DNA of 64,000 bases from an uncultured delta proteobacterium (GCA_963711565.1 CAVQEQ010000003.1:317411-381410), one strand, 5' to 3'. Numbered from the stretch's first letter, positions 16,841 through 61,549 are shown. The notes: generated from the letters alone by a model not told the origin. Translations and numbers: made by a program.

Positions 16841-16858
16841 CCAGTCGTTCACCGCATC

Positions 16859-18663: not shown

Positions 18664-18668
18664 CCTGA

Positions 18669-18970: not shown

Positions 18971-19005
18971 GACCTCTTCCCCTCGCCTTGAAAGGAGAGA
19001 GGATC
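18971..19005. repeat. REP-like hairpin, family A variant
   Basis: gacctcttcccctcgccttgaaaggagagaggatc. Confidence 0.4.
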
Positions 19006-19353
19006 GAAGGTGCGGGTCCTTTATTCAGCTCGCGATTGGTCCGCGCGATGCAGGATTCCGGCTACCTAGAAGCTGAGCTAACGGCAAACCGCCGATCGCC
19101 ATCGAAACGAAGCCCTGGTAGTTTGCAGTCTGAGAGAGTCGCTAACAAAACGTCACACCCCCCAACCTCTTCGCGAATCATGGATCACGAACCCAAAACG
19201 CAGAACGATCACAACGCGTATATTCCAGGCGCGCGTTTCTCCCATGCGCGACGCGCTTGGCGGGTTCGCTCGCGCGGCGAGTTCCCATCGAGGGCGCCGG
19301 TGGGGCGTTCCTGACTAAGCCCCTCACAAACACGTAGGAGGAACTGGGCGGCG

Positions 19354-19803: not shown

Positions 19804-19857
19804 GCCGTGCAGATGTTCCCGCAATTAGACAAGTGACGTAGGAGTGCCGCGCCGCGC

Positions 19858-19912
19858 TACGGCAGGATAGCCCGTTCCGCGGGGCAGCGGTGACCCCTGC
19901 ACCCAGTGACTT
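19858..19912 (+). repeat. REP-like element, family B partial copy
   Basis: Contains CGGGGCAGCGGTGACCCCTGCACCC. Confidence 0.45.
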
Positions 19913-20172
19913 TTGCGGGTACACGCAGAGCCGCGCGCGAACACAGACGCACTCAGGACATTCGGTTACGATTCGGGATGGCGCCGGATAACTGACATCG
20001 CGCGCAACGGACGATCGGCTGCAGAATCTCTTGCACAGGGAAGTTGGCCGGCCTATACGGGACCTGGAATCGGCGAGTCAAGACAGAAATCCCGGGTAAA
20101 ACTGAATAAAGTAGTAGCGTTGTTGGTTCTCGGGGGTTTGGATGGGACTGCGGGATAATCCGGCTGAGTGAC

Positions 20173-22460: not shown

Positions 22461-22726
22461 GTCCTTGTCAAAAGCCTAAGCCCGAACGTACTGATGATGG
22501 AGCCCGCGCAAAATTGATAGTCCCGAGATGGTGCCGGCCGGAACCGCGCACGTCGAAAGTCCGGCGCGTTGTGCTCCACAATAATGGTGCGCATAAGCTT
22601 GTTCGGGTGAATGGGCACGATGCGCTCGATCATGCGCATGATTGCTGCCCGCACTTCGAGCGGATCGCGGCGTGACACGCAGTAGGAGAGGCCGGCCTGA
22701 AACTCACTCTCCACCAATGTGGGCAC
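22409..22726 (-). CDS. hypothetical protein (doubtful)
   Basis: ORF only. It overlaps both neighbouring genes. Confidence 0.2.
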   Translation of the reverse strand: MPTLVESEFQAGLSYCVSRRDPLEVRAAIMRMIERIVPIHPNKLMRTIIVEHNAPDFRRARFRPAPSRDYQFCAGSIISTFGLRLLTRTCGRGKTSRAFAVEIEL

Positions 22727-32244: not shown

Positions 32245-34272
32245 CTACTTTGGGGCTTTGCCGGTTCCTGATAACTCTACGGACTGGGGCGAAGTTGTCA
32301 GGTTGTCGTAGATCATCAGTTCGCCGATCTGTCGCGTCGTGTCGGGTGGGGTGAAGGTTACCTTTACCTTGCAGGTTTTGCCGGGATCTAGCGTTGTGGC
32401 GCATTCCGATTTTATCGTGAAGACCGACGGCGTTGCGGTTTCCATCGCGATGCTTACGGCTACGCCCGTCTTTTTCTTGTTCGTATTTTTGAGCGTTACG
32501 GTCTGGGACTTGCTGGGTGTTCCGACTATCACCTTGCTGCCGAATGAGAGCGAAGCGGGAATTATGCTCAGCCGATTTCTTTCACCGCCGGGGAACAATC
32601 CGAATACAGCGAGCTGGGTTTGCGTACCCATGTAGACCGCGCCGTTGGCTACCGTCGGATTGGTGAACTTTACCGCCGGTCCGGGATCATCCGAGTTGAA
32701 CTGGTTGCTGTTGTATAGCTCGTTATTCAGGCTGGCCGCATCGAAGGCGTAGAGAATCGCGGGACCGGCCGATTTCCATGCCGTACTATCGATCGCCCAC
32801 AGGATGCCGCCGGTGGTGCCGTTGGCTGAGATGACCGGCGACGCGCCGGGGAATCCAAAGGTGTGGTTCGCGGCCGAGGCCCACGGCGTCTTGATCAATC
32901 CATTGGAGAGAACGAACATCTTCGGCTGATCGTTCACGCCGACCGTGTAGATCATGTTCCGCGCGCCGGCCTTCTTTACCGTTCCATTCCAGTACGCAGG
33001 CGTACTGAACATCCCACCGATCTGGCCGTTCAGTTGCTGCACCATCTCGTTCATGCTCGCGTTGAATCCACCCATCGCGTCGCGATTGACAAGATAGATC
33101 GTTCCCAGCTTGCCGACGCCGATCATCAGATGAGGGTTGGGCCCGGGCTGATCGGGCAGCAACAGGTTGCCGCCCGAGCCCATGTCCAGATCGTCGTCGT
33201 CGAGGAGCAACTCGTCCAGCGGTGTGAAAAAGGTGTTGACCGTGAATGAACCGGGCGTGCCGAGGACGGGCGTCAGCCTAAGAAAGCTGTCGCCGTAATC
33301 GACCGGCGACGCGCCGGTATCGAAGTCCCCGTTGCCGGTGATCGCGATTAAATCGCCGTTGGTATCGACGCCGGGACCGCATCCCGCCTCCCAGATGCCG
33401 GCCTGCTGGCCGTTGGGTGTAGTGTTGAACACAGCCACCTGCGCCAGGGTGGTCTCGTCGTAGCCGAGAATCCATCCGTGGTAGGGCTGAACGTCGCAAT
33501 GCGAGGCGAAGGTCAAATAGACGACGCCGTTCGCGAGCGTCAGCGCGGGCCGATCGTGCTGCAGCAGAGGATCGAACGTGATTACGCCGTCAACGCTGTC
33601 CTCTCCAGTTCCCGGCACGCTCGCCGTAATCGTGACGGGACTGTTCGGCTTTATTTCAAACCCAGTCGTGATATCCAGCGCGTGAAGCTGTTGCTGATAC
33701 TCACCGGGACCGAGCTTGACCTTGGAAAGGACGTAGAGCGTCCCGGTGTCGGGGTCAATCACGGGCGTCGCCGTAATCCCAATCATGGGGGTGATGTCGG
33801 TGCATGACGATCCGAGATCGGGCTGCGGCACCGGGGTAATTCCATCGGCGGGATCGATGAAGCTCGTTTGCCATAGCGGAGGACCCGGGGCGTCAGCGTC
33901 AAAGGCGTAGACGCTGTCGTTCTCGGTCGCGACGTATACGACGTTGTGCGTGCCCTGGCCCGGAATCTCGACCGCCGGGACGTAGAGCGGCTGCGCATAG
34001 GCCTCGCCGTCAAGCGCGTCGGTGAAGAGCAGACCGAATTTCGACGCGGTGACGGTAGAGGGAGTCAGCACGCTCTCCGCGAGGTTTTGACCGGTGCGAA
34101 AATTATCGTTGCGGTAAAGGTATTGCCCGGTGTAACCTGGCTCCAGCGCGCGCGCCGAGCGCGATTGCGCCGCCGCGGACGTCGCGCGGCAAATCAGGCC
34201 GATGCCTGAGATAAGTGCGACGAGCGCAGCGCTCAAACCCAGTCGGAACGATCGCTCCGTCACCTTCCCCAC
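32245..34272 (-). CDS. PQQ-like beta-propeller repeat protein with a C-terminal choice-of-anchor-D-like domain (secreted)
   Basis: Signal peptide and repeated propeller blades. The C-terminal ~110 aa resemble the C-termini of the S53 giants. Confidence 0.65.
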   Translation of the reverse strand: MGKVTERSFRLGLSAALVALISGIGLICRATSAAAQSRSARALEPGYTGQYLYRNDNFRTGQNLAESVLTPSTVTASKFGLLFTDALDGEAYAQPLYVPAVEIPGQGTHNVVYVATENDSVYAFDADAPGPPLWQTSFIDPADGITPVPQPDLGSSCTDITPMIGITATPVIDPDTGTLYVLSKVKLGPGEYQQQLHALDITTGFEIKPNSPVTITASVPGTGEDSVDGVITFDPLLQHDRPALTLANGVVYLTFASHCDVQPYHGWILGYDETTLAQVAVFNTTPNGQQAGIWEAGCGPGVDTNGDLIAITGNGDFDTGASPVDYGDSFLRLTPVLGTPGSFTVNTFFTPLDELLLDDDDLDMGSGGNLLLPDQPGPNPHLMIGVGKLGTIYLVNRDAMGGFNASMNEMVQQLNGQIGGMFSTPAYWNGTVKKAGARNMIYTVGVNDQPKMFVLSNGLIKTPWASAANHTFGFPGASPVISANGTTGGILWAIDSTAWKSAGPAILYAFDAASLNNELYNSNQFNSDDPGPAVKFTNPTVANGAVYMGTQTQLAVFGLFPGGERNRLSIIPASLSFGSKVIVGTPSKSQTVTLKNTNKKKTGVAVSIAMETATPSVFTIKSECATTLDPGKTCKVKVTFTPPDTTRQIGELMIYDNLTTSPQSVELSGTGKAPK

Positions 34273-45724: not shown

Positions 45725-46039
45725 CCGCTACCACCCGAAACTTCATGGAGCCGCCCGCGCGGGCGCTCACAGCATTCTCTCTCAATGCAAATACCGCGAA
45801 AGAGTAAAAAATTCCAACGCTTGCGACTCGATCCTCGCGGTCCTGCTCGAAATCCGGCGTAAGGCTACCTAATTTTGCCCGCTCTCTGCAACAAAAAAGA
45901 GTCATTGAACCGGGATTTTTTGCGATACGCTCGCACGCCGGAAAGCGAGCAGTCCCGGCAGGAGAAAAGTGAAACCGCCGCCCCGATTGAATCGGGCCGG
46001 CGGTTTTCTTCATCACGTGAGCCTCGGCGTCCGCTCAAA

Positions 46040-49000
46040 TCATTGCTTCGGCTCCTTGCCGCTGCCCTCGAGCTTGACGCTCTTGTCGTCACCCACCTCG
46101 AGGTTGGTGTCTATTGTGAGCGTGCCGCTGTACTTCATCGCGGCGGTCGGCGCGAATTCCACCGAGACTTCGCAACTGCCAGGGGCCACGCCTTTGGATT
46201 TCGGGCCGAGGTCATCGTCGTTGCATTCCTGGGTCAGCGTGAACGGACTCCCGACGCCGGATTCCATCTCGATCAGAATCGGCAGCGGGACCTTTTTCTT
46301 TTTTACCTTGCCCGCGTTGGTGATCTTTAGCGTCTTGATCTTATTCGAGCCCACCTCAACGGCGCCAAAATTCAGTCTCTTGGGCGAAATCTTTAGCTTG
46401 CCGGGGACCGGAGTCGGTGTTGCGGTTGGGGTCGCAGTGGCGGTTGCAGTTGCCGTTGCTGTCGCAGTAGCCGTAGCGGTTGGGGTCGCGGAAATCGTGA
46501 GCACGTCGAAACCGGTCGAGGCGTTCGACGCGAGCAACTCGCCAGTACCAGCGAAGGTCGCAGTCAGAGTCTCGAAACCAGCACCGCTCGCCGTTACCTG
46601 ACAGGACGCGATGCCTTGCGCGTTGGTCGGCGCATTGCAGTTTTGCCCGCCGACGGAGAAGTCGATGGTCTCGCCCGAGAGCGCTGTCGCTGGACTCTGC
46701 GAGACGTTGGTCAACGATCCGATGAGGGTGACTGTTTGTCCAGGAACGGCACCCTCAGGACTCTGGTTGAGGCTGACGAAGGTAGTGTCGGAACCAGGGC
46801 CCCAGGTCACAACGGCTTGATTGGAAGTAAGCGGCGTACTGCTGACGGTGGTGGACGCCGTTATGGTATCGACGCCCTGATGCGCGGCGACGTAACTGAA
46901 CGACGCCTGCCCGCTTGCGTTCGCGATCACCTGCTGGACCTGCGGGTTGGCGCCGGTGACTGTGAACTGGATCTGTGTTCCCGCTGGAGGAGTCGTGTAG
47001 TGGATGCTCGCATTGAAGGTCTGGGACGTCCCCTGTGCCGGATTCGGCGACACCGAAGTCGGCGATAGTACAATCTCCGGAGACGTGAGAGCGCTCGCAT
47101 AAGTGCAGTCGCCGGCGGTGTCCGTGATCCTGAAGACGGTGGGCCCCTGCGAGGCGTAGATGCATCCGTCGGTGCCGATGGTCAGGAAGTTGGCGCCCGC
47201 TTTCGTGGCCAGCGGGGTCGCCAATGTCGGTGGAGTGGTCGTCAGGTCAACCTCGTTAATGCCAACGACAGCATCGTTCACGAATGGCGTCCCAATCAGA
47301 GAACGTCCCCGCACCGGTCCCGCCTGCCAGTAATCCCAGATTGGCGAGCTGTAGGCCAGAAAGAGTGGTAACGGTCGGCGTCGTCGGACCATTGGTACCG
47401 CTTATTTCGGCGACGTTGACCTCTGAGCCGTTGAAGGTCCACGCGTAAATCGTTCCTCCCGGAGCGAAGGCCAAGGTCGCATTGGGACCCGGCGACAATG
47501 TGGTGTACACAGAGGTGGAGGGCGACGCACCGCCTGGATCGGAGACGCGCCAGACCGAGGTGTTTGCGTAACTCTCGGTGCATGTGTCGTCGGTAAATAG
47601 ATCTCCGCTGAGCGGATCGATCGAAATTGTCGTGGGACAAACCTCAGTGGAAGAAATCGTTCTTGTCACCGTGCCATTGGAGGGATTGAGCTGGAGTATA
47701 GAGCCGGTCGTGGAACTCGCAGAGCTCACATCCAGGCTGGCAAACAAATTACCGCTCGAATCGAAGACCAGGCCCGACAGCGTCTGGCCGAGCGAAGTGC
47801 TGTTGAGCTTCGTGCTGGGGCCTGCCGCGCCGCCGCCGGGCGGGAACTTGTAGATATTCCCGGTGGTGAACTCGTTGACGTAGAGATTCCCCGAGCTGTC
47901 GAAGGCGATCCCGGTTGCTCCCTCGCAGTCGAAATTGACGCCAGTGCCGCCGCCGGTAGTGAGGCTCTGGACTGTAAAACCCGTCGCGTAGGGCGTGATG
48001 ACGAATCCCGGCGCAGCGACCGGAGCGGGGCTGGCGCAGGCGTTGCTCGGGTCGCCGCTGAACGTCACGACAGCAGAGCCTGGAACCGGCAAGCTGCCGT
48101 CGGTAACGTCCACCGCCGTGTAGGTAACCGCCTCGCTGGCGATATCGGTCGCGTTGAACTCGATAGTGCCTTCAGCGCCGGTCACCTGCGGGCTCGGGCC
48201 AGTGACCACCGAGCTGCCGGTTTGCGATATGTTGACCAGCTTGCCCGGCGTCGGCCGCCCCAGCGAATCCTTGAGCGTGACCGTGATGGTGGAGGCCGAG
48301 GTGCCGTCGTTAGCAACGCTGGTGAGATTCGGGACGATGCTCGCACTAACGGCGGGTGGAGTTGCGAAGGTGACGCCTGGCGTAGTGCTGGGTGTCAGTG
48401 TGACGCCGTCCGTCGTGTCTTCCGCGGTGAAGGTAGTTGCCTCGGCAACCAGGTCGGTCACCGTAAAGATTACTGCTCCGTTATCGACCGTCGAAGGACC
48501 GCTGGCCGCGCTGATTTGCGCACTGCTGCCTGAGTCCGCGGTTAGAGTCACCGTCTTGCCGCTCACGATATTACCGTCGCTATCGAGCAGCCTAACCACC
48601 ACGTATGAGGGCGTTGCACCGTCGGCGGGGATAGTTGATGGCGGTGTGGCTCCGCTCAGCGGCGAAGGGATCCCCACACCAACCGAAACCTCAGAGATGG
48701 TGGCGTCAACGGGACCAGCGGTGTCCCCGAGCAACTTGAGATGAAGAGCGTCAACATTTGGTGATCCAAGTCCGACGTGAGCAAAGTCACTGCCCATCGA
48801 TGCTGCGTCGTGAAAAGCCGTGGAGCTGGCGAACGGATAGATTAGCGGGTTCAGGAAGCCCAGGTTTGTCCCCTGAGATTGGTTCAGGAGCGCAGCGTAA
48901 ACAGCCCACGTTGGCGTCGAACTGCTCGTTCCGCTGTACAAGCCACCGGTCGGACAGCCGCCCGCGCTGGCCTCGCAGATAACCACGCCCTCCTCTGGAT

Positions 49001-50495
49001 CGGCGTTAGCTACAACATCCGGTACCGAGCGCTGTGCGGTACCGCTCAACGTCGTTTGGTAGCTTTTGGCGGAGAAGAACTTGCTCACTCCGAAACCACC
49101 TTGGCCGGTGGGCGGAGTGTCCGTAGTTCCATCCCACCAGGTCTCTGAGCCGTAAGTCGCTCCCGGTCCTAATGCGAGCGAGGATCCGCCGACCGCGGTC
49201 GCATTCGGCGAATCCGCAGGCACCGAAACCGTATTGGCTGCTCCGTCGAGACAGGTGCTCCCGCTGTCCCCGCTTCCGTTGAAGATTGAGATTCCGCCGG
49301 CAGCGGCATTCTGAAAGATCAAGTCGATGCTCTGGACGTCGGCTAGAGTGGTTTCGTCCTCGCAATAGGCCCAACTGTTGCTGATGATCGTGGAACCGCC
49401 ACTGATTGCGGCATTGAAGAGCGATTGAAAGCTGGCGCCGGACCCTGTGAAAGGTTGGTCATACACCACGACCTTTGCGCCGGGGGCGCCGGACATTACG
49501 TCGTCGATATCGAGTAGTACTTCGTCCTGGTTGGGACCCGGCGATGCGCCGCCATTTACTTTGACTTCGGACAGATTGGTTATCTGCGTAGCCGGCGACC
49601 CGACCAAGTTGAGAAAGTCGGCCACATCGCTCTGCTGGAAGGTGTCAAATTCGATCAGGCCGATGGTTTGTCCGGTGCCATCCACTCCGAGAAATGACGG
49701 TGCCGGCGGATCCAATCCGAAGGGCGCTTTGCCGGTCGGAACAATATATTTCTTCTGCGCCGCGTAGCAGGTCTTATATGCATTTTGTATTGCTTCGGTC
49801 CCGTGGTTCACGATCGGGATTTGAAGCAGGGCGCAAACAATACTAGCGCCAATCAACCTGATCGCGACAACGTCGGAATGGGGCGTAGCTAAATTCGACA
49901 GACCTGCAATCGCTTCCAGGTGCAGAGCCAGGTCAGCCGGCACAGCCGGATCGCGATCATTCGCAAAGAAGATCCGCTTGCCAATCCTATAACTGCTGAT
50001 TCGCAGATCGAACGCGTTTTGCGCCTGCCCGCGCGTTCCGCGCACCGAGAGCGTCAATCGATTTTTCGAGCCGCCGGTGACCTCGAATCCGTTTTTCCTG
50101 AGATACGCTGCCAGCTGCCGATATTCGGAGCGTGAAGGACCGAAACGATCTGCGATTTGGTTCTGTGAAAGAAAGTGATGAAAATTCTTCGAATGCGGAT
50201 CATAGATCTCGTGGAGGTAACGTTCGAATCCGGCCTGGTCGTCATGCTTGAGAACGATCGTCAGCGTTATCGGCGCATTCTCATTTTTGGGATTCGACGA
50301 CGGAACCAGGGTCGCCTTGGTCAGCGCCGGCAACACATGACCGGGCAAGCGAACCATCGCCGGCGCGGCGTCGGCTTGTTCGGTACTTGCTTTAGCTGTC
50401 GATGATCTCGCCGCTAAAACCACCGCCAAAAGCGGAACCAACAGCCATAGGCGGCGTCGAGACAACTGAGCCGGACTTCCCATTTTGATCCCCAT
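46040..50495 (-). CDS. giant secreted sedolisin (S53) peptidase with Big_1, NHL-like propeller and choice-of-anchor-D domains; frameshifted near 47300
   Basis: Pro-kumamolisin activation domain, catalytic SGTSSSTP, two Big_1 domains and a propeller. The Thr-Ala linker and the C-terminal module read in a second frame. The ORF fragments are 47256-50495 and 46040-47392. Confidence 0.7.
46411..46490. repeat. imperfect trinucleotide/hexanucleotide (GCN)n repeat encoding a (Thr-Ala)n-Pro linker
   Basis: A counterpart of different length lies at 50991-51066. Confidence 0.6.
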
Positions 50496-50622
50496 TCTTA
50501 ACTGGCGATGACGAATTTAGACTCGCATCGACCATTACTTCATCGGCAATGCGAGATTCAAGCTCAAATTTACGCTCAAATCTCTTTTCACCGCGTCAGA
50601 ACAAATTTCGCCCATCACCTTG

Positions 50623-53600
50623 TCATTGCTTCGGCTCCTTGCCGCTGCCCTCGAGCTTGACGCTCTTGTCGTCACCCACCTCGAGGTTGGTGTCTATTGT
50701 GAGCGTGCCGCTGTACTTCATCGCGGCGGTCGGGGCGAATTCCACTGAGACTTCGCAACTGCCAGGGGCCACGCCTTTGGATTTCGGGCCGAGGTCATCG
50801 TCGTTGCATTCCTGGGTCAGCGTGAACGGACTCCCGACGCCGGATTCCATCTCGATCAGAATCGGCAGCGGGACCTTTTTCTTCTTTACCTTGCCCGCAT
50901 TGGTGATCTTGACCGTCTTGATCTTGTTGGAGCCCACCTCAACGGCGCCGAAATTCAGTCTCTTGGGCGAAATCTTTAGCTTGCCGGGGACCGGAGTCGG
51001 TGTTGCGGTTGGAGTCGCAGTGGCGGTCGCGGTTGCAGTTGCAGTGGCGGTGGCGGTTGGAGTCGGCGGAGTTAGTCCCACGACCGTGAATGGCCTGGAG
51101 TCGCTCGACGGATTGTATTGCGAGGTTCCAGGGAAGTTCGCGGCAAGTCTCATGAGTCCAGTGCCCGATGGCGTGATCTGACACGAGGCGTTGCCGTTGC
51201 TGTCGGTTGTGGCGCCGCATCCCGCGCCGCCGATGGTGAAGTTCACAGTTTCACCCGCAAGCGCGACTTGAGGAATCGCCGATTGATCCGTCAGGTTCGC
51301 CGTCACGGTGACAAGTTGGCTCGCGGCCGCGCTGGACGGGCTCGCGTTGAGAGTAAGGAAGGTCACATCCGATCCGGGTCCCCAGGTGATGACGGCCTGA
51401 TTCGAGACGAGCGACGAACTGGCCACGGTCGCCGAGGCTGAAATGGTATCCACTCCCTGATGGGTCGCGGTGTAGGTGAACGATGCCGCGCCGCCTACGC
51501 TGTTGGCCTCGACAAACTGCGGGTTCGCCCCGGTCACACCCAGCAAGACCGGCGTTCCATCGGTGACGGTGACATTGTGGAAGCGTGCCGTGAACGTCTG
51601 CGCGCTGCCCTGCGGCGGGTTGGGCGAGACGGTCGTAGGCGTCAGAACGAGCGATGGTGCCGAGAGGCTGGCCACAAAGCCGCAAGTGCCGTCGGGATTG
51701 CTGATCCTCAATACTTCGTTACCATTGGCAATATAGAGGCATCCGTCGGGACCGAAAGTCGCGTTCTCTGCCGCGGGGACGATGCCGCTATTCACCAGGA
51801 TAGAGCCGGTGCTGGGAGGGTTGGTGGTGAGATCAAGCGTGGCGACCGCGTCGCTGAGCGTGCCGATTGCGGTGCCGAAGATAAGGAACTGCGCTCCGCC
51901 GCCTTTTGCGGTTCCCGATGCGGCCAGAAATTCTGCCGCCGGCATCGGGCCGGAGAGCACGTTGACGGGAGCCGGTTGAGTGCCGGCGGTGCCGCCCACC
52001 TCGACGATTTGGCCGTCGCCGGCATTGCCGAACACGTAGATGGTCCCATCGGCCGCGAAGGTAATCTGGTAGTTGCCCTGATTGGGCAGGGTCGCGTAGG
52101 TGGAAACTGTGGGAGTGGTCGCAAGATTGGAGATACGCAGCAGCGCGCCGCTACCGTTGGGACCCTCGCAACCATCATCGACGAAGAGATCGCCACTGAG
52201 AGGATCGACCGCCATCTCGAGCGGGCAATTGAGATTCCCGGCAACGGTGTTGAGAACGGCGCCGGTGCTCGGATCGATTTGAAGCACGGCGCCGGTGCCC
52301 AGATTGCTGCCAGTCGAGCCGCGGACCGCGTAGAGGTTGCCGCCGTCGAATACCAGTTGGCCGAGGAGGGGACCGATGGTGCCAATCAGATTGCTCGCGC
52401 TCGCGGCGCCGCCGCCTGATGGAATCTTGTAAATGGCGCCGTTGAACTCCTCGCCTACATACAGATTGCCCGAAGCGTCGAACGCGAGGCCCCACGCCCC
52501 GGGGCATCCGCCAAAGTCTCCGCCTGCGTATGAGAAGTTTTCCGAAAACAATCCGGTGACATACGGAGTGACGAGGTACCCCGGTGCCGACATGGTATTT
52601 CCGTTTCCGCATCCCGTTTCGGGCCCGCTGCTGAAGGTCACCTGGGTGGTTTCGGGGAAGGCAAGATTGCCGTCGGTCACATCGGTCGCCGTGTAAGTGA
52701 CGGTCTCATCGTCAGTGTCATATCCTGTGAACACGATTTGGCCCGCGGAGTCGGTGACCTGCGGAATGGGCCCAGTGATGACAGAGTTGCCGGTCTGATT
52801 GAGCTGGATCTGCTTGCCCGGCGATGGACGCCCGAGTGTGTCCTCGAGCGTCACGGTAATAGTGGTGGGATGTGCGCCGTCAGCAGTGACGGTCGTCGGG
52901 AACGCAGTCAGCCCGGCCGACGTTGCGGGCGGCGGAACGAATGAGAGTGTAGGTTGCTGCGCCAAGATTACGCTGTCGGTCACATCCGTAGCAGTAAGAG
53001 TAAGATTTTCAGTGTTGAGATCGGTGATGGAAAAGACCGCGGCGCCGTCATTATCTGTCACGGCGAAGGGAGGGGTAATCGTGGCACTGCCGGCGGCTGC
53101 TGTTAGCGATACACTCTTACCACTGATTGGAAACCCGTTGGTGTCCGTAAGGACCGCCTGCGACAGCGCGGTGGTGACGCCGTCGGCGGGGGCAGAACCG
53201 TCCGCGTTGGCCCCTGCCGCGAATGCAACCGAGAGACTCGGGCTGGCCGCGCCTGGGGATAAGCCGGTTAGAGCCAGCCGCAACTGCAGAAAATCGGGCG
53301 ATCCCAAGCCGACGTGCGCGAAGTCGGAACCCAACGATGCCGCGGAGTGGAACGCATTGGTATTTGCCAGCGGATATAAATGCAAGTTGGCGTTGCCGAG
53401 GTTGGAGCCCAGCATCGCGTTCAGGGCGGCCGCGTAGGCCGCCCATTCCGGCGCCGCCATACTGGTCCCGCCAAAGCGACGCCCGCTCAGACAACCGCCC
53501 AAATCCGCCTGGCAAATCTGAAGGCCCTGCGCCGGGTCAGCATCAATCACCACGTCCGGTATCGAGCGCATCGTGGAGCCGCTCAATCCGCTTTGGTAAG

Positions 53601-55201
53601 CCGGGGCGGGGAAGAATTTACTTACGCCGTAACCACCCTGCCCCGTGGGTGGCGTATGACTGACGCCATTCCACCACGTCTCGCTCCCGTACGTCAGGCC
53701 GGGGCCGGGCGCGGGACTGGTGCCGCCGACAGCGGTCGCATTGGGAGAATCGGCAGGCACTCCGATGGTGTTTGCGCTGCCGTCAAGGCAGGTGGTGCCG
53801 GAATCGCCGCTGCCGTTAAAGACGCTAATCCCGCCCGCCGCGGCCGATTGGAGAACCGTATCAATGCTTTTCACCTCGGACAGTGACATCTGGTCTTCGC
53901 ACTCTGACCACGAGTTGCTGATGACAGTATCGCCATCGTCGATCATGGCTTGGAACATCGTCCCAAACGAGGTTCCATTGGGGGCGTCGTAAACGACGTA
54001 GCTGGTCGCGGGCAACGCAGCCAGCGACATTACCGTATCGACGTTGAGCAGAACCTCTGACTCCCCTGGTCCCGGTGTCGCCACGCCGCCGTCCACCGGC
54101 ACTGTGCTTAGCTGTCCGAAGTCGGCGCCGCCGCCGCCCACCTCCAACCAGTCTTGTACATCGCTGGGCGTGAATGTGTCGAACTCCAGCAGGCCGATTT
54201 TCTGTGGGTTGGTGCCCAGATTCGAGGCCGGGGCCGCTCGGGATGAATCTCTCGCGGCAGGTGCGCGCACACCGGCAAGGAAAGCGTTGTAGAAGTCGGC
54301 ACACCCCTTGTTGGTTGACCAAATAGAAGAGTCGATACCCGCCAAGAGAGAACAAAGCCCATAAGCCCAGCCCGACGCGAACGCAAAACCGAGGCAGGCT
54401 ACCTCGACAACCTCCGCCGCTGGCGGGGCCACCGTAATGATGCCGGCTTCCACAATACCAATCGCGGAAGGAGTGGTGGTCGGAGTTAACGGGAAACAGA
54501 ACGTCGTTGGTGACCTCCCAGTCCGGTGCGGACGCCGCAGGCCGGGCGGCCAGCCCGGTGTCCGGCGCCGAGCGGGACGGGATCGCGAGATTTGACAAAC
54601 CGGCAATCGATTGCACTCGCGACGCCAATTTGAGCGGCAACGCAGGATCGCCGTCATTGGCGCGAAAAGTCCGGCTACCGATGCGATAGTCCGCGATGCG
54701 CACGTCGAACGCGCGCTCTACATTCGCTCGCGTGCCGCGCATCGTGAGCGTCAAGCGATTCTTCGCGCCGCGTTCGAGTTTGAATCCCTTCGATACCATC
54801 CAGCGCAGGACGGAGTTGTACTCGGCGCGGCTCGGGCCGAAACGATTGGCAATCTGCCGCTGGGTCAGAAATTTGTGGAAATTTCTTGAATGCGGATCGT
54901 AGAGGTCCTGCAGGAAGCGCTCGAAGGACGGCTGATCGTCGCGCTTGAGCACGAGCGTCAGCGTGAGCGGCTCAGTTTCGCTGGTGACGCTCGAAGGAAC
55001 AATGGTTGCCTTCGACAGTGCCGGCAGCACGTAACCCGGCAGACGAACCATCGCGGGCGCGTCATCACCACGGTCGGCGCTCGCTGTTGCAATCGAGGGG
55101 CTAGCGAAGAAAAGCGAAGCTAACGAGAGAACCCACAGCCACAAACGAGCCAGAGAGAGAACTTTCATTTTCAACTCTCTTGATTTCGATCCCGCGTCCA
55201 C
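50623..55201 (-). CDS. giant secreted sedolisin (S53) peptidase paralogue with Big_1, propeller and choice-of-anchor-D domains; frameshifted near 54480
   Basis: The prodomain ORF 53861-55201 is real to about 54490. The main ORF 50623-54657 is real from about 54475. The C-terminal ~125 aa are near-identical to the paralogue. Confidence 0.7.
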
Positions 55202-55470: not shown

Positions 55471-57834
55471 TCATGGTCCGATCCCCGTCATGCTGATGTT
55501 ATGCGGGCTGTCGGGATCGCTGCCGACGCTCACCGCGATGCTCGCGCTCTCCGGCGATCCGCCGCCAGTCGGCATAAACGTCACCGCGATCGTGCAACTC
55601 GAGTTCGCCGCCACCATCGAGCCGCAGGTACCGCCGTTCAGAGCGAAATCGCTTGCGTTGGAGCCGGTGATGCTCGCACTCACAGACAACGAAGACCCCG
55701 ACAGGTTGGTGACTGTCACGTCCTTGGTCTTCGACGAAGTCCGCGCCGTCAGCGTGCCGAACGCGAGCGTAGCCGCCGGTGTGACCGTTGCCGGGATCGT
55801 CGAGCCAGTGGTGAATCCAACCGTGTACGAATCAAGCGGGTCGGGAGAGTCGGTAACCGTCATTGACGTCGCTTCCGTGCCCAGCGCGGTCGGTGCGTAG
55901 GTAACAATCAGTGTGCAAGTCGACTTGGCCCCGAGGGTCGAAGTGCAGGTGCCGCCCGTGACGCCGAAGTCACCGGCGTTCAGGCCGCTGAAGGTCGGCG
56001 GGAGCGTCAGCGAAACCGCGTTGGTCTGATAATTGTGCACCGTGATCGTCTTGGTCTTGCTGGAGCCAATCTTCACGCTGCCGAAGGCGAAGCTGGCGGG
56101 CGTAACGGCCATAGTGATCGTGCCGGTGCCGGTGAGCGTCACATGCTGCGGGCTGGTGGCGGTGTTGTCTTCGACCGAAAGAGATGCGCTGCGCGCGCCA
56201 AGCGCGTTGGGCCTGAAGCCGATCGCGATGGTGCAGCTGGTCAGCGGCGCGATTCCGCCCGCTAGGCAGGTAGTGGTACCGGTGGAGGCGAATTCAGGGT
56301 CAGACGAGGTCACATGAACGAACAGCGGGTTGGTGTGGCCGGTGTTCCTGACGGTGAGGTTCTTCACGATCTTGTCGCCAACCGGCGAGTTGCCGAGTGC
56401 CAGCGAGGCAGCCACCGAAATCGTGGTCGGAGCGTTGGCGATCTCATACACGGTGCCATTGGCGACAACACCGAAAGAGCCGCCGTCCAGAGTCGTGCCG
56501 TAGAGATTGCCGATCGGATCGATGAGCAGGCTCGCCCAGGGCAGAGAGCCGTCGGTGGTGGCGGGGTTGCCAAAGTTCCAGAGGATTGTCTCGCCCCAGC
56601 TTCCCCCGCCCATCGTAGGCGGAGTCAGCTTGTACGCCGTGCCCCCTACATAAGGTTCATCGCTATAGAGCCCGCCGTATTCGGTGGTGCCGTAGACATT
56701 GCCGTTCGGATCGATCACCACGCCGCCCACCGGGGAAAAGCCGTCCGTGCCGTTGTCCTGAAAATTCCAGAGAACTTGCTCGGTCCACGAACCCCCGCCG
56801 CTGCCCGGAGGTGACAGCTCGAACGCCGTCCCGACTCCGCTTACGCCGGTTGCAAAATCCGCGGAAGTCCCGCCTAACGCGGTCGTGCCGTAGATATTGC
56901 CCAGCCTATCCATTATCAGGCCGGACACCGGTTGGGCGCCGTCATCGACGCTGCTGGGGCCGTAGGTGTCGCCAAAGTTCCAGAGGACCGAATAGCCACC
57001 GCCCGAAGTGATCTCGAACAACACTCCGCCCGGGTCAGAACTGCCATAGTTGCTCCCGCCGCCCGAAGTCGTGCCGAAGAGATCGCCGCTGCCATCTCCA
57101 ATCACGCCGGCATAGGGAAGAAAGCCGTTAAGGCCGGGATTGCCGGCGCCACCTTCAGCGAATTGCATCAGGATTTTCTCGGTCCACCCCGGACCGCTTG
57201 AGGGCGGTGATAGCTCGTACACCGTCCCATCGAAGCCCGGGCCGTCAAACGTCTGACCTTCGAGCGTCGTGCCGAACAGATTGCCGTTCTTATCCATGAT
57301 CAGGCCGGAAGTGGGCTCATAGCCGTCGGTGACGGCGGGGTTGCCAAAGCTCCAGAGAATCGTCTCGGTCCAAGGTCCCCCACTTATGATGGGCGGTGAC
57401 AGCTCCCACGCGGCGCCAAGATTGTAAGCGCCTCCAGCCTGAGTCGTCCCGTACAGGTTGCCGTGCGAATCCATCACCAGGCCGGATCCCCAGGTCCAGG
57501 GGAGATAGCCGTCGGTGCCGTTGTTGTTGAAGTTCCAGAGGATTGTCTGCGTCCACATTCCGCCGCCGGTCGTCGGCGGTGACAGCTCGTACACGACGCC
57601 CTCGCTGTGAGTCCCGCCGTTGGGAGCCGTGCCGTAGAAATTACCCTGCCCATCCTCGATCAGGCTGGAATGGGGGTAAGACCCGGTCGCTCCTGTGCCG
57701 CCTGAGTTGAAGTTGAAAAGCACGCTCTCGCTAGGACTTGGGCCGGAGTCGCTGTGAGCGCTTAAGCTCACCATCGCTAGCGTAAGGAGAAGGCCGAGAA
57801 TGATCAGCGGGAATGTCGGTTTTGAAAATCGCAA
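55471..57834 (-). CDS. secreted tandem-repeat (Gloeo_Verruco/GloVer-like) protein with three C-terminal choice-of-anchor-D-like domains
   Basis: At least 10 repeats of ~45 aa (G.LYGTT..GG....G.VYELSPP...W.E.ILW.F), then three ~110-aa Ig-like domains. Confidence 0.75.
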   Translation of the reverse strand: MRFSKPTFPLIILGLLLTLAMVSLSAHSDSGPSPSESVLFNFNSGGTGATGSYPHSSLIEDGQGNFYGTAPNGGTHSEGVVYELSPPTTGGGMWTQTILWNFNNNGTDGYLPWTWGSGLVMDSHGNLYGTTQAGGAYNLGAAWELSPPIISGGPWTETILWSFGNPAVTDGYEPTSGLIMDKNGNLFGTTLEGQTFDGPGFDGTVYELSPPSSGPGWTEKILMQFAEGGAGNPGLNGFLPYAGVIGDGSGDLFGTTSGGGSNYGSSDPGGVLFEITSGGGYSVLWNFGDTYGPSSVDDGAQPVSGLIMDRLGNIYGTTALGGTSADFATGVSGVGTAFELSPPGSGGGSWTEQVLWNFQDNGTDGFSPVGGVVIDPNGNVYGTTEYGGLYSDEPYVGGTAYKLTPPTMGGGSWGETILWNFGNPATTDGSLPWASLLIDPIGNLYGTTLDGGSFGVVANGTVYEIANAPTTISVAASLALGNSPVGDKIVKNLTVRNTGHTNPLFVHVTSSDPEFASTGTTTCLAGGIAPLTSCTIAIGFRPNALGARSASLSVEDNTATSPQHVTLTGTGTITMAVTPASFAFGSVKIGSSKTKTITVHNYQTNAVSLTLPPTFSGLNAGDFGVTGGTCTSTLGAKSTCTLIVTYAPTALGTEATSMTVTDSPDPLDSYTVGFTTGSTIPATVTPAATLAFGTLTARTSSKTKDVTVTNLSGSSLSVSASITGSNASDFALNGGTCGSMVAANSSCTIAVTFMPTGGGSPESASIAVSVGSDPDSPHNISMTGIGP

Positions 57835-57975
57835 GACTAATCGCCTATTTGCCTAACGTGAGTTACTAATGATTCACGAAGCGTTTATATCTCTTACTTT
57901 GACGCTATATTTCGTACTAAAAGTTACTGTTGCGATACTTGACGTACGGCTACGGCATTTGACCCAAGCCGGGCA

Positions 57976-59094
57976 ATGGGGAAATGTACCCCCTACTCCT
58001 CAATGACCGAGTGGCGACAATACGAGACGTTGGTGCGTCTGCTTCCGGAGTTGTATTCAGCGCAGACGCTCGAAACCTTGCCGAAGCACGTAACTGGCCT
58101 GCTTCCGCGATTGATGGGGGTCGATTCGTCCGGCTACAACGAAACCAACTTCGCGCGCCGTCGGTTCGAGGCCCTCTCGCATCCTTCAGCGGAGGCGTGC
58201 GGAATTCCCAATGCGCCCGAAACCCTCGCCCGCCTGATGCATCAGCATCCGATGGTCGTGCACAATCGCAACGGCGACCAGCGCGCGCTGAAGATGTCGG
58301 ACCTGATTTCGCAACGACGGTTTCATCGGCTTGAGCTGTACGACATGGTCTATCGGCCGACGCGGGTCGAATACCTGATGACCGGGGGATTCAAGCTGTC
58401 CCGGGCCGGCGACATCGTAACGGTCGGCTTCGGACGCGAAACGAGGGACTTCAGCGAAGACGAGCGGGATTTGCTGAATCTGTTTCTGCCGCATCTGCGA
58501 CAGGCCTATGCGAACGCAGACGCGATGACGACGTTCCAGAGCCAACTCGAAGGCCGCCAACAATTTCTCGAAGAGCAGTTGAATACGGCGGCCGTCGTCG
58601 TTCAGGACCTGGCGATCAAACACGCAAGCCGGCTCGCGATCCGATGGCTGTCGAGCTTTTTCCGCGACGATCCAGCTCGCAATGACAAGCTTCCCGACCG
58701 GCTCGAGCGGTGGGTTCGGTTCTGCCAAACCTCGATGGACGGCACGCAGTCCGAGATCAAGCCGTGCTCGCCGTTGACGGTGGAATCAGAGGAGGCGCGC
58801 CTCGAAATCCGGATGCTCAAGACCAGTCGGGACGGCGAGGTCGTTCTGTTGCTGAAGCGCGAGACCACTCGCGATTGTCCGGAGATGCTGCAGCGACGGC
58901 TGGGCCTCGCTCCGCGCGAAGCGGAAGTACTGTTTTGGATATCGAAGGGCAAGACTAGCCGCGAGACCGCCGCGATTTTGTCGATCACGCGCAAGACCGT
59001 GGACCATCACGTCGAACGCATTCATCGGAAGCTCGGCACCGAGACCCGCACCGCGGCCGCCGCAATCGCATGGAACGCGATGCGCGATTCCTAG
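57976..59094 (+). CDS. LuxR-family (GerE HTH) transcriptional regulator with an uncharacterised N-terminal domain
   Basis: C-terminal EAEVLFWISKGKTSRETAAILSITRKTVDHHVERIHRKLG. Confidence 0.8.
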   Translation: MGKCTPYSSMTEWRQYETLVRLLPELYSAQTLETLPKHVTGLLPRLMGVDSSGYNETNFARRRFEALSHPSAEACGIPNAPETLARLMHQHPMVVHNRNGDQRALKMSDLISQRRFHRLELYDMVYRPTRVEYLMTGGFKLSRAGDIVTVGFGRETRDFSEDERDLLNLFLPHLRQAYANADAMTTFQSQLEGRQQFLEEQLNTAAVVVQDLAIKHASRLAIRWLSSFFRDDPARNDKLPDRLERWVRFCQTSMDGTQSEIKPCSPLTVESEEARLEIRMLKTSRDGEVVLLLKRETTRDCPEMLQRRLGLAPREAEVLFWISKGKTSRETAAILSITRKTVDHHVERIHRKLGTETRTAAAAIAWNAMRDS

Positions 59095-59162
59095 CGTTCT
59101 CTTCCTATCGATTTCGTCTCGATTGTTGAACGCGGCGCGGCCTCAGCGAGCCGGGCAGCCGT

Positions 59163-59555
59163 TTATGACTTCGGCTTGCTGGTGTCGCGGCGGAAGCGGC
59201 TGAAGAACATCACGATCACGCCCCACAGCACCATCAGCAGTGCGATCCCGATCACGCCGAGACCGACGCCTGCCAGGATTCCCGTCGCGCATAGGACAGC
59301 GCCGATCACGAACAGCGGGATTGCGAATGCGATCGGATTGAACGGATCGTTGCGCGCCGCCCGCTCGACCATCGCCGCCGCCTGCTCGGACGTGCCCGCA
59401 TCCTCGTTGCTCTCCTTGAGCAGGCTCACCGCGTAGTCGGTGAGTTCCTGCCGATTGGGCATCGCGCGCAGACGGTCGGCGAGCTCTTTGGCAAGCTCCT
59501 CGACGCGTTCGTCGTTGGACTGGGACTCAGAGTCGGGTTTGTTGGATTCAGCCAC
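59163..59555 (-). CDS. hypothetical membrane protein
   Basis: Acidic N-terminus and two C-terminal TM helices. Confidence 0.5.
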   Translation of the reverse strand: MAESNKPDSESQSNDERVEELAKELADRLRAMPNRQELTDYAVSLLKESNEDAGTSEQAAAMVERAARNDPFNPIAFAIPLFVIGAVLCATGILAGVGLGVIGIALLMVLWGVIVMFFSRFRRDTSKPKS

Positions 59556-59735
59556 GCTGCGCTTGGGGTTTCTTCTCGATCGCAGTTAACACCTATCGGA
59601 CATGAGATCGAATTGTCAACGAAGCGGCAAGCTCACGCGTTCTCACGGCAGGCTCGGCCGACGCAAGCCGGCTCTCATTTTGAAATTTACGATTCGCTCT
59701 TGTTGGTCTCGTTCCACTTCGGACAGAGTGTATGC

Positions 59736-60872
59736 ATGCGCATCAATATTCTTCTTCTTTCAGTCGCGATCGCCCTGTTGCCGCGGATCGCGACGGCTCA
59801 AGACAGCTGCGGCACGCCCAGCGCCGGCAGCGATCATTGGCCCGTGGCGAATAGTGACAGCGTGGGAATCTCGAGTACGACGCTCTGCCCGATGGTAAAG
59901 TGGCTGAACGACTGGAAGGAAGGCAATGTTCATTCCGTTTTGGTTGTCCGTCACGGCAAGCTCGTGTTCGAGCACTACTTCACGGGCATCGACGAGAAGC
60001 TGGGCAACCCCCTCGGCGAAGTAACGTTCGGCCCCGAAACCCGGCACGACGCGCGCTCGATGACCAAGAGCGTTACCGACTTGCTGGTCGGGATAGCCAT
60101 CGATCGCGGCTGGATCAAAAGCATAGACGCGAGCGTGTTCTCTTTCTTTCCTCAATATGCGGATCTTCGTACGCCGGAGAAGGATCGGATCACGCTACGC
60201 CATCTGCTGACGATGTCTTCCGGATTGGAGTGGCACGAGTTCGATACTCCCTATACCAGTGACGCCAACAGCGAGAATCAGATGGACAACGCCAAAGATC
60301 CCTACCGCTATGCACTTCAGCAGCCGGTCGTGGCGCCGCCGGGGCGCGTGTGGAACTACAATTCGGGATCAACAGAATTGCTCGGCGCGATTCTCCGCAA
60401 AGCGACCGGCAAGCCGCTCGATCAATTGGCTCGGTCGCTACTCTTCGAGCCACTCGGGATAACGGACGTTGAGTGGTACAAATATGCGCAAGGTAATCCC
60501 AGCGCCGCGGCCGGCCTTCGTCTGCGGCCGCGGGATCTCGCGAAAATCGGCCAACTTGTATTACAGCGCGGCGCCTGGAACGGCAAGCAAATCGTCTCCG
60601 CGGGATGGATCGACGCGTCAACCACGCCTCAAATCAATGGTTTCCTGGTCTTCTTCTACGGCTACCAATTCTGGCTCGGCCGTTCGCTCGTCGATAGGCA
60701 TCCCGTGGATTGGGCGGCCGCATGGGGACTAGGAGGACAGCGCGTGTTTATCATTCCCGATCTTGATCTTGTCGTCGTGGTGACGGCCGGCCTTTACCGA
60801 AGCGACATCCAGGCCCAGGTGCCTCTCAAGATCCTCAACCAGTACGTGTTGAGCGCTGTCCAGACGCGCTAG
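59736..60872 (+). CDS. serine hydrolase of the beta-lactamase/transpeptidase family
   Basis: SMTKS (SxxK) active-site motif and signal peptide. Start at MRINILLL. Confidence 0.8.
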   Translation: MRINILLLSVAIALLPRIATAQDSCGTPSAGSDHWPVANSDSVGISSTTLCPMVKWLNDWKEGNVHSVLVVRHGKLVFEHYFTGIDEKLGNPLGEVTFGPETRHDARSMTKSVTDLLVGIAIDRGWIKSIDASVFSFFPQYADLRTPEKDRITLRHLLTMSSGLEWHEFDTPYTSDANSENQMDNAKDPYRYALQQPVVAPPGRVWNYNSGSTELLGAILRKATGKPLDQLARSLLFEPLGITDVEWYKYAQGNPSAAAGLRLRPRDLAKIGQLVLQRGAWNGKQIVSAGWIDASTTPQINGFLVFFYGYQFWLGRSLVDRHPVDWAAAWGLGGQRVFIIPDLDLVVVVTAGLYRSDIQAQVPLKILNQYVLSAVQTR

Positions 60873-60931
60873 GTAGGAGTCAAACAGAGATGTAGCCGGA
60901 GATGAGAAGCTCGTGACGCCACGGCGGCAAC

Positions 60932-61549
60932 TCAGACGTTTTTGCGCGCGACGATCACCGTGTGCACCGACATCGGGCTGGCCTTTGCGTTGCGCTCGAG
61001 CGTGATCGGATGGCCCTTGAGCACATCCCTCTTGCGCAGCTTGGTGGTCCATCCCAGTTGCCGCGCGACCGGATTGAATATCGTATTGAGAAACGCGACC
61101 ACCGGGTTGGCGCTCTGGAAATGCGTCGTGATCGCGATCCGCCCGCCCGGCCTACACACCCGCACCATCTCCGACATCATCCGGTACGGATCGGGCACCA
61201 CGGTGAGAACGTGAAATGACGTGACGTAGTCGAAGCTGTTGTCGGGATAGTCGAGGTTCAGCGCGTCGCCCTGCCGCAGCTCGATATGTCCCCAGCCGTT
61301 CTCGGTCACGCGGTTTTTTGCCCGCGCGAGCATGTCGGCCGACGGGTCGATCGCGACGACATGCGCGTACGGCGGATATCCGTCGAGGGCGATTCCAGTG
61401 CCGACGCCGACTTCGAGCACGCGGTTGCCGGGCCTGAGATTCAGGCTCTCGATAACCTCGTGCTCGCGATCGACAAAAACCCGGCCGAAGAAAAAATCGT
61501 AGAATCGCGCCAGATCGGAATAGACGCGGCTCTCATGCGGTTGGGACAT
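60932..61549 (-). CDS. class I SAM-dependent methyltransferase
   Basis: VLEVGVGTG motif I. Confidence 0.85.
   Translation of the reverse strand: MSQPHESRVYSDLARFYDFFFGRVFVDREHEVIESLNLRPGNRVLEVGVGTGIALDGYPPYAHVVAIDPSADMLARAKNRVTENGWGHIELRQGDALNLDYPDNSFDYVTSFHVLTVVPDPYRMMSEMVRVCRPGGRIAITTHFQSANPVVAFLNTIFNPVARQLGWTTKLRKRDVLKGHPITLERNAKASPMSVHTVIVARKNV

Follow-up and report, generated by a model that had tools for sequence, protein, structure and literature searches.

Two tandem S53 protease genes of Candidatus Binatus, a soil bacterium, each encoding a protein of ~1,500 aa and each seemingly split by a frameshift, are in all probability intact (we put this reading at about 90%): the frameshifts are best explained as consensus errors of the nanopore type, and the C-terminal tract of the pair as homogenised by gene conversion. 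Since each break amounts to one spurious T of the motif-linked nanopore kind, the genes are almost certainly whole. They form a tandem pair of minus-strand paralogues that together fill 14% of the window, which here means the whole 64-kb stretch of DNA analysed. The tandem paralogy proposed in the original prediction was recovered as described, with a layout of four open reading frames (ORFs) and one frame change per gene.

Domain architecture of the gene pair

On the minus strand, paralogue 1 is read as ORFs 47256-50495 (1079 aa) and 46040-47392 (450 aa), and paralogue 2 as ORFs 53861-55201 (446 aa) and 50623-54657 (1344 aa). The repaired genes, their mapped domains and the upstream neighbour are as follows.

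46040..50495, minus strand: paralogue 1, S53 multidomain protease gene (1,484 aa after deleting one spurious T)
50388-50495, minus strand: signal-peptide-like N-terminus of paralogue 1, read from sequence only
49881..50363, minus strand: pro-kumamolisin activation domain of paralogue 1, aa 45-205 (PF09286, E 7.5e-29)
48726..49685, minus strand: S53 catalytic domain of paralogue 1, aa 271-590 (phmmer against PDB kumamolisin-As, E 1.8e-29)
about 47075-48014, minus strand: propeller-equivalent region of paralogue 1, by equivalence to paralogue 2
50623..55168, minus strand: paralogue 2, S53 multidomain protease gene (1,514 aa from ATG 55168 after deleting one spurious T)
51652..52590, minus strand: six-bladed beta-propeller of paralogue 2 (AlphaFold2 pLDDT 88.7, pTM 0.89)
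55471..57834, minus strand: upstream neighbour, 787 aa, with GloVer repeats (TIGR03803, E 1e-49) and three choice-of-anchor D domains (NF012200, 144 bits; Pfam Cep192_D4/ASH/HYDIN)

The gene pair is predicted to encode Binataceae S53 (kumamolisin-like) multidomain secreted proteases. Each product would consist of a signal peptide, a pro-kumamolisin activation domain, the catalytic domain, two Big_1 domains, a six-bladed beta-propeller, a Big_3-type Ig-like region, a Thr/Ala/Pro linker and a choice-of-anchor-D-like Ig domain. Profile searches, the structure model and alignment to kumamolisin-As agree with the domain order first proposed. All the domains then named were found, but a Big_3_5 region between propeller and linker had been missed; it has room for two Ig-like domains and gives one Pfam match.

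The activation domain was found as Pro-kuma_activ (E 1e-28), and PF09286 scores 101 and 99 bits in the two paralogues (cut-off 23.5). Paralogue 1 carries Glu, Asp, Asp and Ser at kumamolisin positions 78, 82, 164 and 278, as checked in a 90-sequence alignment. An Invasin_D3 match accompanies the two Big_1 domains. The propeller model finds its best folds by Foldseek in Drp35, lactonases, the TRIM2 NHL domain and Pizza6 (E about 1e-9 to 1e-7). The C-terminal 122 aa match choice_anch_D (NF012200) over profile positions 13-104 of 108 with 40.5 bits (E 3.1e-10); because this lies under the curated cut-off of 45 bits, the module is described as choice-of-anchor-D-like and not as a curated member. 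PF22544 (HYDIN/VesB Ig-like) matches the same domain with 28.9 bits, over the Pfam cut-off of 25.5.

The repaired paralogue 1 protein has over 100 full-length homologues, which are 1,450-1,600 aa long, and the orthologue of paralogue 2 is P0055 in the more distant contig L001 (73% identical). The pair occupies a variable gene slot, which other Binatus genomes fill differently and which also includes the upstream neighbour. Scanning the locus for promoters and terminators gave nothing above shuffled expectation; a hairpin followed by a T-run lies 3′ of the paralogue 1 stop codon, as seen by eye only.

Frame changes and probable motif-linked errors

The frame changes fall at 47302/47303 in paralogue 1 and at 54500/54501 in paralogue 2, so that the predicted position 47300 was exact and that of 54480 off by about 20 nt. 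Each consists of one surplus T within an octamer common to the two sites, GACGT[T]CT, and the accompanying remark that neither site lies in a homopolymer holds, the longest run at either being TT. Two further apparent lesions, both substitutions, belong with them.

47300..47307, minus strand: frameshift site of paralogue 1, GACGT[T]CT, extra T at 47302/47303, underlying hexamer GACGTC
54498..54505, minus strand: frameshift site of paralogue 2, GACGT[T]CT, extra T at 54500/54501, by comparison with conspecific contigs
54043..54045, minus strand: apparent Asp-to-Asn change of catalytic Asp82 (kumamolisin numbering), paralogue 2 D375N, AACGTC where GACGTC is expected
46708..46708, minus strand: apparent D1263N in paralogue 1, G-to-A at GACGTC, private to the window; G in 5/5 conspecific contigs

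Five contigs were retrieved through a 100%-identical cytochrome b gene and compared over window positions 35001-55725 (20.7 kb), where they are 99.1-99.5% identical to the window; judged by 99% identity and full synteny, they are the same species and locus. Two are independent assemblies, L029 (NCBI) and L037 (JGI), and three have Flye-style contig names (L032, L033 and L035). At the paralogue 1 site all five read GACGTCTCTG, encoding Thr-Ser-Leu, and the insertion is found in the window only. At the paralogue 2 site L029, L037 and L032 read GACGTCTGT, L033 reads GACGTTTGT and L035 reads as the window does, extra T included; the more distant L001 and L028 also have GACGTCTGT, with identical flanks. 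L035 additionally has two GTTGAC variants in common with the window, a sharing that could also be read as a real haplotype. Both protease genes are unbroken in L029 and L037, and in the latter they encode 1,484 and 1,514 aa with 7 and 18 aa differences, respectively, from the window. Across the 20.7 kb, the only two indels between the window and L029 are the two extra Ts. The frameshifts are thus present in the given assembly and absent from the independent ones, which restore a single frame in both genes, the very outcome that the original prediction had named as showing them intact.

The alterations are concentrated in one class of motif. Within the compared region, 10 of the window's 17 GACGTC/GTCGAC sites are altered, including in a cytochrome c gene, against 367 of 20,116 other hexamers (1.8%; Fisher p = 8e-14), and the control hexamers GACGAC (23 sites), GGCGCC (24), GCGCGC (21) and TCGCGA (21) are unaltered in the window. 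The corresponding counts are 7/17 in L033, 6/17 in L035 and 2/17 in L032, and 0/17 in both L029 and L037; the sister contigs with Flye-style names also carry many split genes. The changes are G1→A, C6→T or +T at GACGTC, and C3→T or G4→A at GTCGAC. At every site where at least two of the four sequences concerned (window, L032, L033, L035) are altered (5/5), discordant alleles are seen, either G1→A versus C6→T or +T versus C→T, which indicates a strand-symmetric error and not inheritance.

A wholly systematic error at the octamer is ruled out by copies of GACGTTCT at 11996 and 62685, both within uninterrupted ORFs. GACGTCT and GACGTTT also occur uncorrupted elsewhere in the window, and 18 GACGTC sites are retained over its 64 kb. 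Because the octamer is intact elsewhere, the errors are taken to be motif-bound but partly penetrant.

The apparent loss of the catalytic Asp in paralogue 2 is the same miscall artefact. The residue was placed as Asp82 by the kumamolisin-As alignment, where Asn is unique among 90 aligned homologues, and its codon is GAC in 5/5 conspecific contigs as well as in L001 and L028. Both frameshifts, together with D1263N of paralogue 1 and the Asp82Asn change of paralogue 2, would thus be nanopore-type consensus errors at GACGTC, and the same error class would strike GTCGAC sites. In either palindrome the base concerned would be the G in GAC (miscalled G→A) or its opposite-strand counterpart, the C in GTC (miscalled C→T); alternatively, a T would be added next to it. 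N6-methylation of the neighbouring adenine in Candidatus Binatus is the probable cause; we infer both this methylated base and the methyltransferases responsible. The error pattern suggests that the organism has two DNA modification specificities, GACGTC and GTCGAC. An ambiguity motif RACG/CGTY, with the minimal form RA/TY, has been described for ONT Kit-14 data and ascribed to methylation (Lohde et al. 2024, PMC11610573). For the Microflora Danica terrestrial assemblies, Nanopore reads were the sole input and a single Medaka polishing round was applied (PMC12313526); the ERZ accessions probably belong to that project. The window's own contig, in ENA/NCBI, is 1.57 Mb long, and this length, like the contig names and split genes of its Flye-style sisters, is an indirect sign of nanopore origin.

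The original prediction had suggested a possibly phase-variable or decaying locus, a reading not supported in view of the missing slippery repeat, the invariant in-frame linker, the retained conserved columns and the intact independent assemblies. Decay could still mean that paralogue 2, and perhaps paralogue 1 as well, became a genuine pseudogene very recently, the +1 insertions and the catalytic Asp-to-Asn change being real and tolerated because the array is redundant. This is quite improbable. The lesions do fall in two dispensable-looking paralogues within a slot of variable content while no other window gene is visibly broken, and the paralogue 2 insertion recurs in L035; however, every lesion lies at GACGTC, a motif class altered in the window even in a cytochrome c gene and in neither independent assembly, and the other Flye-style contigs have different alleles at the same bases. 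Further signs of decay are missing as well. No in-frame stop was seen across 4.4 kb, with one shift per gene. At 220 columns conserved in at least 95% of sequences, paralogue 1 deviates three times and paralogue 2 once (homologue median 2), and two of these four deviations are the motif-site miscalls D375N and D1263N; relaxed selection was rejected for lack of excess change at such columns. A codon-usage scan of the window, with Pfam searches on two overlapping ORF pairs, showed no other split genes; the two suspect pairs are separate genes (a luciferase-like gene and an alpha/beta hydrolase gene; CtaA and UbiA).

A lower probability still attaches to real mutation directed at the motif, in which the palindromes are destroyed in some strains, for example because error-prone repair follows self-restriction at GACGTC/GTCGAC or because methylcytosine is deaminated. 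The inserted T sits between T5 and C6 of GACGTC, where AatII-type enzymes cut, and deamination would be expected to give C→T and G→A transitions, although it leaves the insertions unexplained. Likewise, GACGTC is scarce in the window (observed/expected 0.59) and GACGTT in excess (1.54), but miscalls predict this skew equally. Such mutation would, moreover, need to have hit identical sites independently, and often to different alleles, in four closely related assemblies while sparing two others, and would have to strike a catalytic residue and open reading frames. Programmed +1 frameshifting by the ribosome, or a surface-protease switch turned on and off by slippage, for which the shared octamer and the nearby codon-repeat linker might speak, is effectively refuted: the octamer stands in different codon phases at the two sites (G-ACG-TTC-T versus GAC-GTT-CT), neither site has a homopolymer or short tandem repeat, the further octamer copies lie in uninterrupted ORFs, each of the >100 homologues, like each conspecific copy, is one ORF, and the linker repeat keeps the frame and does not differ in length between the copies.

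Consensus errors of the nanopore type very probably account for the breaks and have wider bearing. In nanopore-only MAGs with unmodelled methylation, motif miscalls can mimic pseudogenes, phase variation and catalytic-site substitutions. In the window they probably touch many further genes silently.

Homogenisation of the C-terminal tract

The near-identical 3′ module of the two genes was confirmed and delimited by nucleotide alignment.

46040..46474, minus strand: conversion tract copy 1, comprising the T/A/P linker, the 122-aa Ig-like C-terminal domain and the stop codon; 95.9% identical to 50623-51057, gapless
50623..51057, minus strand: conversion tract copy 2, by nucleotide alignment to copy 1

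The identity of 95.9% holds over ~435 nt without gaps and rises to 97.1% across the last 409 nt; beyond the tract the genes match at only about 75%, in short patches. Two details of the original description need correction: identity ends at the TGA stop codon and does not extend into flanking non-coding bases, and the linker repeat is of the same length in both copies, with no indel. The apparent (TA)8 versus (TA)7 difference is due to one Ala/Pro substitution. The linker, (ACN-GCN)n, preserves the reading frame and does not vary in length between the copies or among those conspecific contigs that show no obvious noise.

Recent gene conversion, as originally proposed, is supported by identity above 90%, sharp edges and recurrence of the pattern in a second species. 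The tract copies are 94.7% identical in the independent L029 and L037, and all five window-private changes in copy 2 are to the copy-1 state. At the protein level the paralogues share 99% of the C-terminal domain, 39-62% of the other structured domains and 11% of the linker after the prodomain (about 54% outside the tract). In the comparison with L001, tract nucleotide identity is 97.6% within the window and 92-94% among the four L001 array members, and about 76% between species; among the DNA compared, only the window species and L001 have at least two comparable C-terminal domains. Paralogue 1 is 89% identical to P0001 in the propeller and only 64% in the prodomain. Recurrent conversion among array members within a genome would homogenise the linker and C-terminal domain while the remainder diverges. 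A separate cluster of window-private substitutions in paralogue 2 (53779-54205) was considered as conversion from paralogue 1 and rejected, as only 8/21 positions match.

Neighbouring secreted proteins also contain, at their ends or throughout, more distant copies of this type of C-terminal module. Selection for co-evolution with a lineage-specific partner, rather than passive conversion, might drive the homogenisation, the module being an unrecognised Binatia C-terminal sorting or attachment signal of a secreted-protein regulon, a proposal we consider speculative and rather unlikely. As a redundant array of large S53 proteases, secreted and with a C-terminal domain homogenised by conversion, the locus is of modest, specialist interest for the biology of the Binatia cell surface and of protein degradation.

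Comparison with known systems

The errors resemble the methylation-linked ONT errors (PMC11610573) in that G→A falls on the R of RACG and C→T on the Y of CGTY, and in being strand-symmetric, partly penetrant, motif-restricted and missing from independent assemblies. They differ in that the motif is a full palindrome, GACGTC or GTCGAC, and in that the consensus sometimes gains a T, producing frameshifts; the organism differs as well, being an uncultured Binatus from a metagenome. The tract, in turn, recalls concerted evolution in tandem arrays of bacterial surface or secreted proteins, where paralogue identity within a genome likewise far exceeds orthologue identity between genomes over a sharply bounded tract; here it begins in a repetitive linker. 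In contrast to such arrays, only the linker and last domain are homogenised, ending exactly at the stop codon, and the remainder of the genes is a mosaic.

As in MEROPS family S53 (sedolisin, kumamolisin, TPP1), the predicted proteases have an activation domain and ~320 residues that align to kumamolisin-As, with the Glu78/Asp82/Ser278 triad and the oxyanion Asp164 kept. Unlike these enzymes, they would carry ~900 additional C-terminal residues (Ig-like domains, six-bladed propeller, T/A/P linker and choice-of-anchor-D-like domain) and a Cys-containing insert of 65-125 residues from prodomain to catalytic domain. Finally, the C-terminal 122 aa cover most of the choice-of-anchor D profile NF012200 and also match PF22544 of the ASH-HYDIN-VesB group, and the neighbouring gene at 55471..57834 holds three bona fide copies. 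The C-terminal domain of the proteases departs from these in standing at the very end of the protein, with no PEP-CTERM or LPXTG-like anchor after it, and in its Lys-rich loop, GKVKKKKVPLP.

Architecture and surroundings of the gene pair

Two S53 protease genes lie in tandem on the minus strand, and each is read in the window as two overlapping ORFs:

47256-50495, minus: N-terminal ORF of paralogue 1, 1,079 aa, overlapping 46040-47392
46040-47392, minus: C-terminal ORF of paralogue 1, 450 aa
53861-55201, minus: N-terminal ORF of paralogue 2, 446 aa, overlapping 50623-54657
50623-54657, minus: C-terminal ORF of paralogue 2, 1,344 aa

In Pfam searches, Pro-kuma_activ opens both N-terminal pieces, and Big_1/Invasin_D3, Big_3_5 and a C-terminal Cep192_D4/HYDIN-VesB Ig-like module are found beyond it. 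About 320 residues C-terminal to the prodomain align with kumamolisin-As (E 1.8e-29), including the positions of Glu78, Asp82, Asp164 and Ser278. Between Big_1 and Big_3_5 lies a segment with SGL, NHL and SBBP matches below threshold only; for paralogue 2 it is predicted to form a beta-propeller (AlphaFold2 model, pLDDT 88.7, pTM 0.89), with six-bladed folds as the closest in the PDB (Drp35, lactonases, TRIM2 NHL, Pizza6). The C-terminal 122 aa score 40.5 bits against NCBIfam choice_anch_D, slightly below its cut-off of 45 bits. By Pfam, the kumamolisin-As alignment and the propeller model, the domain order of the original prediction is correct, save that the Big_3_5 region had been left out. 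The pair is one of ordinary tandem paralogues from a family that is annotated but uncharacterised. Judging by the families involved, the products would be Sec-exported zymogens whose prodomain may be removed autocatalytically, as in kumamolisin, and whose Ig-like and propeller domains could bind substrate or a surface; the C-terminal Ig-like domain is kept uniform across the array.

A cytochrome b/c cluster flanks the pair on one side, and on the other lies the gene for a 787-aa protein that combines GloVer repeats with three choice-of-anchor D domains. The slot bounded by cytochrome b and a conserved methyltransferase (55471-61549 compared) holds the pair and this neighbour as well as one LuxR-family and one beta-lactamase-like gene. 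In four further Binatus contigs whose cytochrome b is identical (L030, L031, L034, L036), Cu-ATPase or Ada/AlkA genes take their place, and the slot is therefore a variable region. Directly 3' of the paralogue 1 stop codon, a T-run follows a GC-rich hairpin (AAACCGCCGGCCCGATTCAATCGGGGCGGCGGTTTCACTTTT, 45960-46035, minus); this is likely an intrinsic terminator for the pair, and a simple scan did not flag it. Elsewhere, the C-terminal choice-of-anchor-D-like module recurs as a distant copy (36.6% aa identity) at the end of a 675-aa ORF (32245-34272, minus), whose N-terminal 560 aa have no Pfam match.

Exchange among C-terminal tracts

In the C-terminal domain the paralogues share 99% identity, against 39-62% in the other structured domains. 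The DNA tract concerned (46040-46474 versus 50623-51057) is gap-free at 95.9% identity and runs from within the linker to the stop codon; in independent assemblies it stands at 94.7%. A near-identical 3' module had been foreseen correctly, but the extension into flanking non-coding DNA that had been read with it is not borne out, as the DNA downstream of the tract is unrelated. The linker was said to differ in length, yet (TA)8 versus (TA)7 reflects a substitution and no indel.

A related Binataceae contig from a different species (L001, ~72% aa identity) has at least five intact S53 genes in tandem at 5320-24422 (1511, 1473, 1499, 1490 and >963 aa), against two in the window's species, and array size thus varies between species. 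Four L001 tracts share 92-94% nucleotide identity with each other and ~76% with the window. Identity within arrays is thus far above that between them, which bears out the proposed recent gene conversion, and the tract is a textbook conversion tract, evolving in concert. Identity to the L001 orthologue is itself mosaic (propeller 89%, prodomain 64%), which points to exchange on a wider scale within the array.

Five window-private changes in the paralogue 2 tract (50682, 50827, 50831, 50866, 50875) are all to the paralogue 1 state, while 50734 and 50746 between them remain of paralogue 2 type; they represent either patchy recent micro-conversion or consensus/polishing cross-talk between repeats. 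In the catalytic domain of paralogue 2, about 20 window-private substitutions cluster at 53779-54205, are not motif-linked and match paralogue 1 at 8 of 21 positions. The cluster is probably genuine, a patch of recombination specific to this strain.

Frame changes against conspecific assemblies

The full-length homologues retrieved with repaired paralogue 1 number over 100, at 1,450-1,600 aa (top identity 71-72%), and most carry the label Candidatus Binataceae or Binatus; a single ORF is therefore the norm. Relative to L001, the closest array, each shift is one extra base: GGGACGTTCTCTG in the window versus GGGACGTACCTG at the paralogue 1 site, and AACGACGTTCTGT versus AACGACGTCTGT at the paralogue 2 site, where the 60 surrounding bases are otherwise identical. 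A JGI metagenome contig from a more distant relative (L028, 86% nucleotide identity) has GACGTCTGT at the latter and an open frame.

Decay of the locus finds no support, as family-conserved columns are kept in both proteins as in typical intact homologues, motif-site changes aside. Nor does phase variation, since no repeat was found at either shift site and the (Thr-Ala)n codon repeat stays in frame. Both shifts share the octamer GACGT[T]CT (47300-47307 and 54498-54505), but its codon phase differs between them, which argues against ribosomal frameshifting.

Conspecific loci were fetched via contigs encoding a 100%-identical cytochrome b adjoining paralogue 1, and exact look-ups also placed proteins identical to the window's neighbouring ones on other contigs. 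Five loci span both protease genes, at 99.1-99.5% identity to window 35001-55725: L029 (NCBI GCA_049694395.1), L037 (JGI 3300075372), and L032, L033 and L035 (ENA analyses, Flye-style contig names). The genes predicted to be broken are uninterrupted in the independent assemblies L037 and L029. The L037 products, 1,514 and 1,484 aa, equal the repaired window lengths, with 18 and 7 amino acid differences, respectively; over 20.7 kb the window differs from L029 by two indels only, the two extra Ts. The paralogue 1 site reads GACGTCTCTG in all five loci, and its true reading is Thr-Ser-Leu (ACG TCT CTG). At the paralogue 2 site, L029, L037 and L032 have GACGTCTGT, L035 agrees with the window and L033 has GACGTTTGT. 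The anomaly that had been flagged is no real property of the organism.

Many further genes are split in the ENA sister contigs L033, L034 and L035 (among them those for a carboxylesterase, 451+96 aa; Ada/AlkA, 217+273 aa; queuosine synthesis, 135+136 aa), and L035 shows 17 gap openings in 20.7 kb, a general indel noise besides motif-specific errors.

Motif-bound differences and their origin

A third lesion accompanies the two shifts. The catalytic Asp82 of paralogue 2 is Asn, the sole case among 90 aligned sequences, through GACGTC→AACGTC with flanks identical in L001 and L028; Asp82 is present in all five conspecific loci. Each of the three falls on GACGT(C). To avoid reference bias, a hexamer was counted as a motif site when two or more of the six assemblies have it as GACGTC or GTCGAC (n=17).

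Altered motif sites per assembly
Window: 10/17
L033: 7/17
L035: 6/17
L032: 2/17
L029: 0/17
L037: 0/17

Only 1.8% of non-motif hexamers are altered in the window (Fisher p = 8e-14), and none of the control hexamers GACGAC (23 sites), GGCGCC (24), GCGCGC (21) and TCGCGA (21). Without exception, either the G of GAC has become A, the C of GTC has become T, or a T has been added there. Alleles are discordant at all five sites altered in more than one assembly; for instance, 49874 is GACGTT in the window versus AACGTC in L032 and L033, and 42599 is AACGTC in the window versus GACGTT in L033. Since these differences among 99%-identical genomes are strand-symmetric, multi-allelic and motif-bound, they are best read not as inheritance but as consensus errors. 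The two frameshifts, Asp82Asn and D1263N of paralogue 1 (46708) are accordingly held to be artefacts with a probability of about 0.9.

Other G→A or C→T changes that are private to the window affect GACGTC/GTCGAC at 42599, 46708, 47249, 48710, 48755 and 49869; one window-private motif-site change falls in a 929-aa c-type cytochrome gene. Over the whole window GACGTC is rarer (observed/expected 0.59) and GACGTT/AACGTC commoner (1.54) than expected, a skew suggesting that the same miscalls spread across it, and many more sites are probably affected outside 35001-55725. Single-base findings adjoining GAC/GTC in the window are to be distrusted.

We infer that the Flye-style contigs come from the Microflora Danica project, because related MFD-named records have the same contig-name style; its terrestrial assemblies were built from Nanopore reads alone and polished once with Medaka (PMC12313526). 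According to a 2026 preprint, G→A and A→G errors concentrate at methylation, and their allele fraction can exceed 50%. The position of the miscalled base, 5' to the A of GAC, suggests G(m6A)CGTC and GTCG(m6A)C as putative modifications in the organism. The error pattern equals the motif of ambiguous positions in Nanopore Kit-14 data, RACG/CGTY with the minimal form RA/TY, which has been ascribed to DNA methylation (Lohde et al., PMC11610573).
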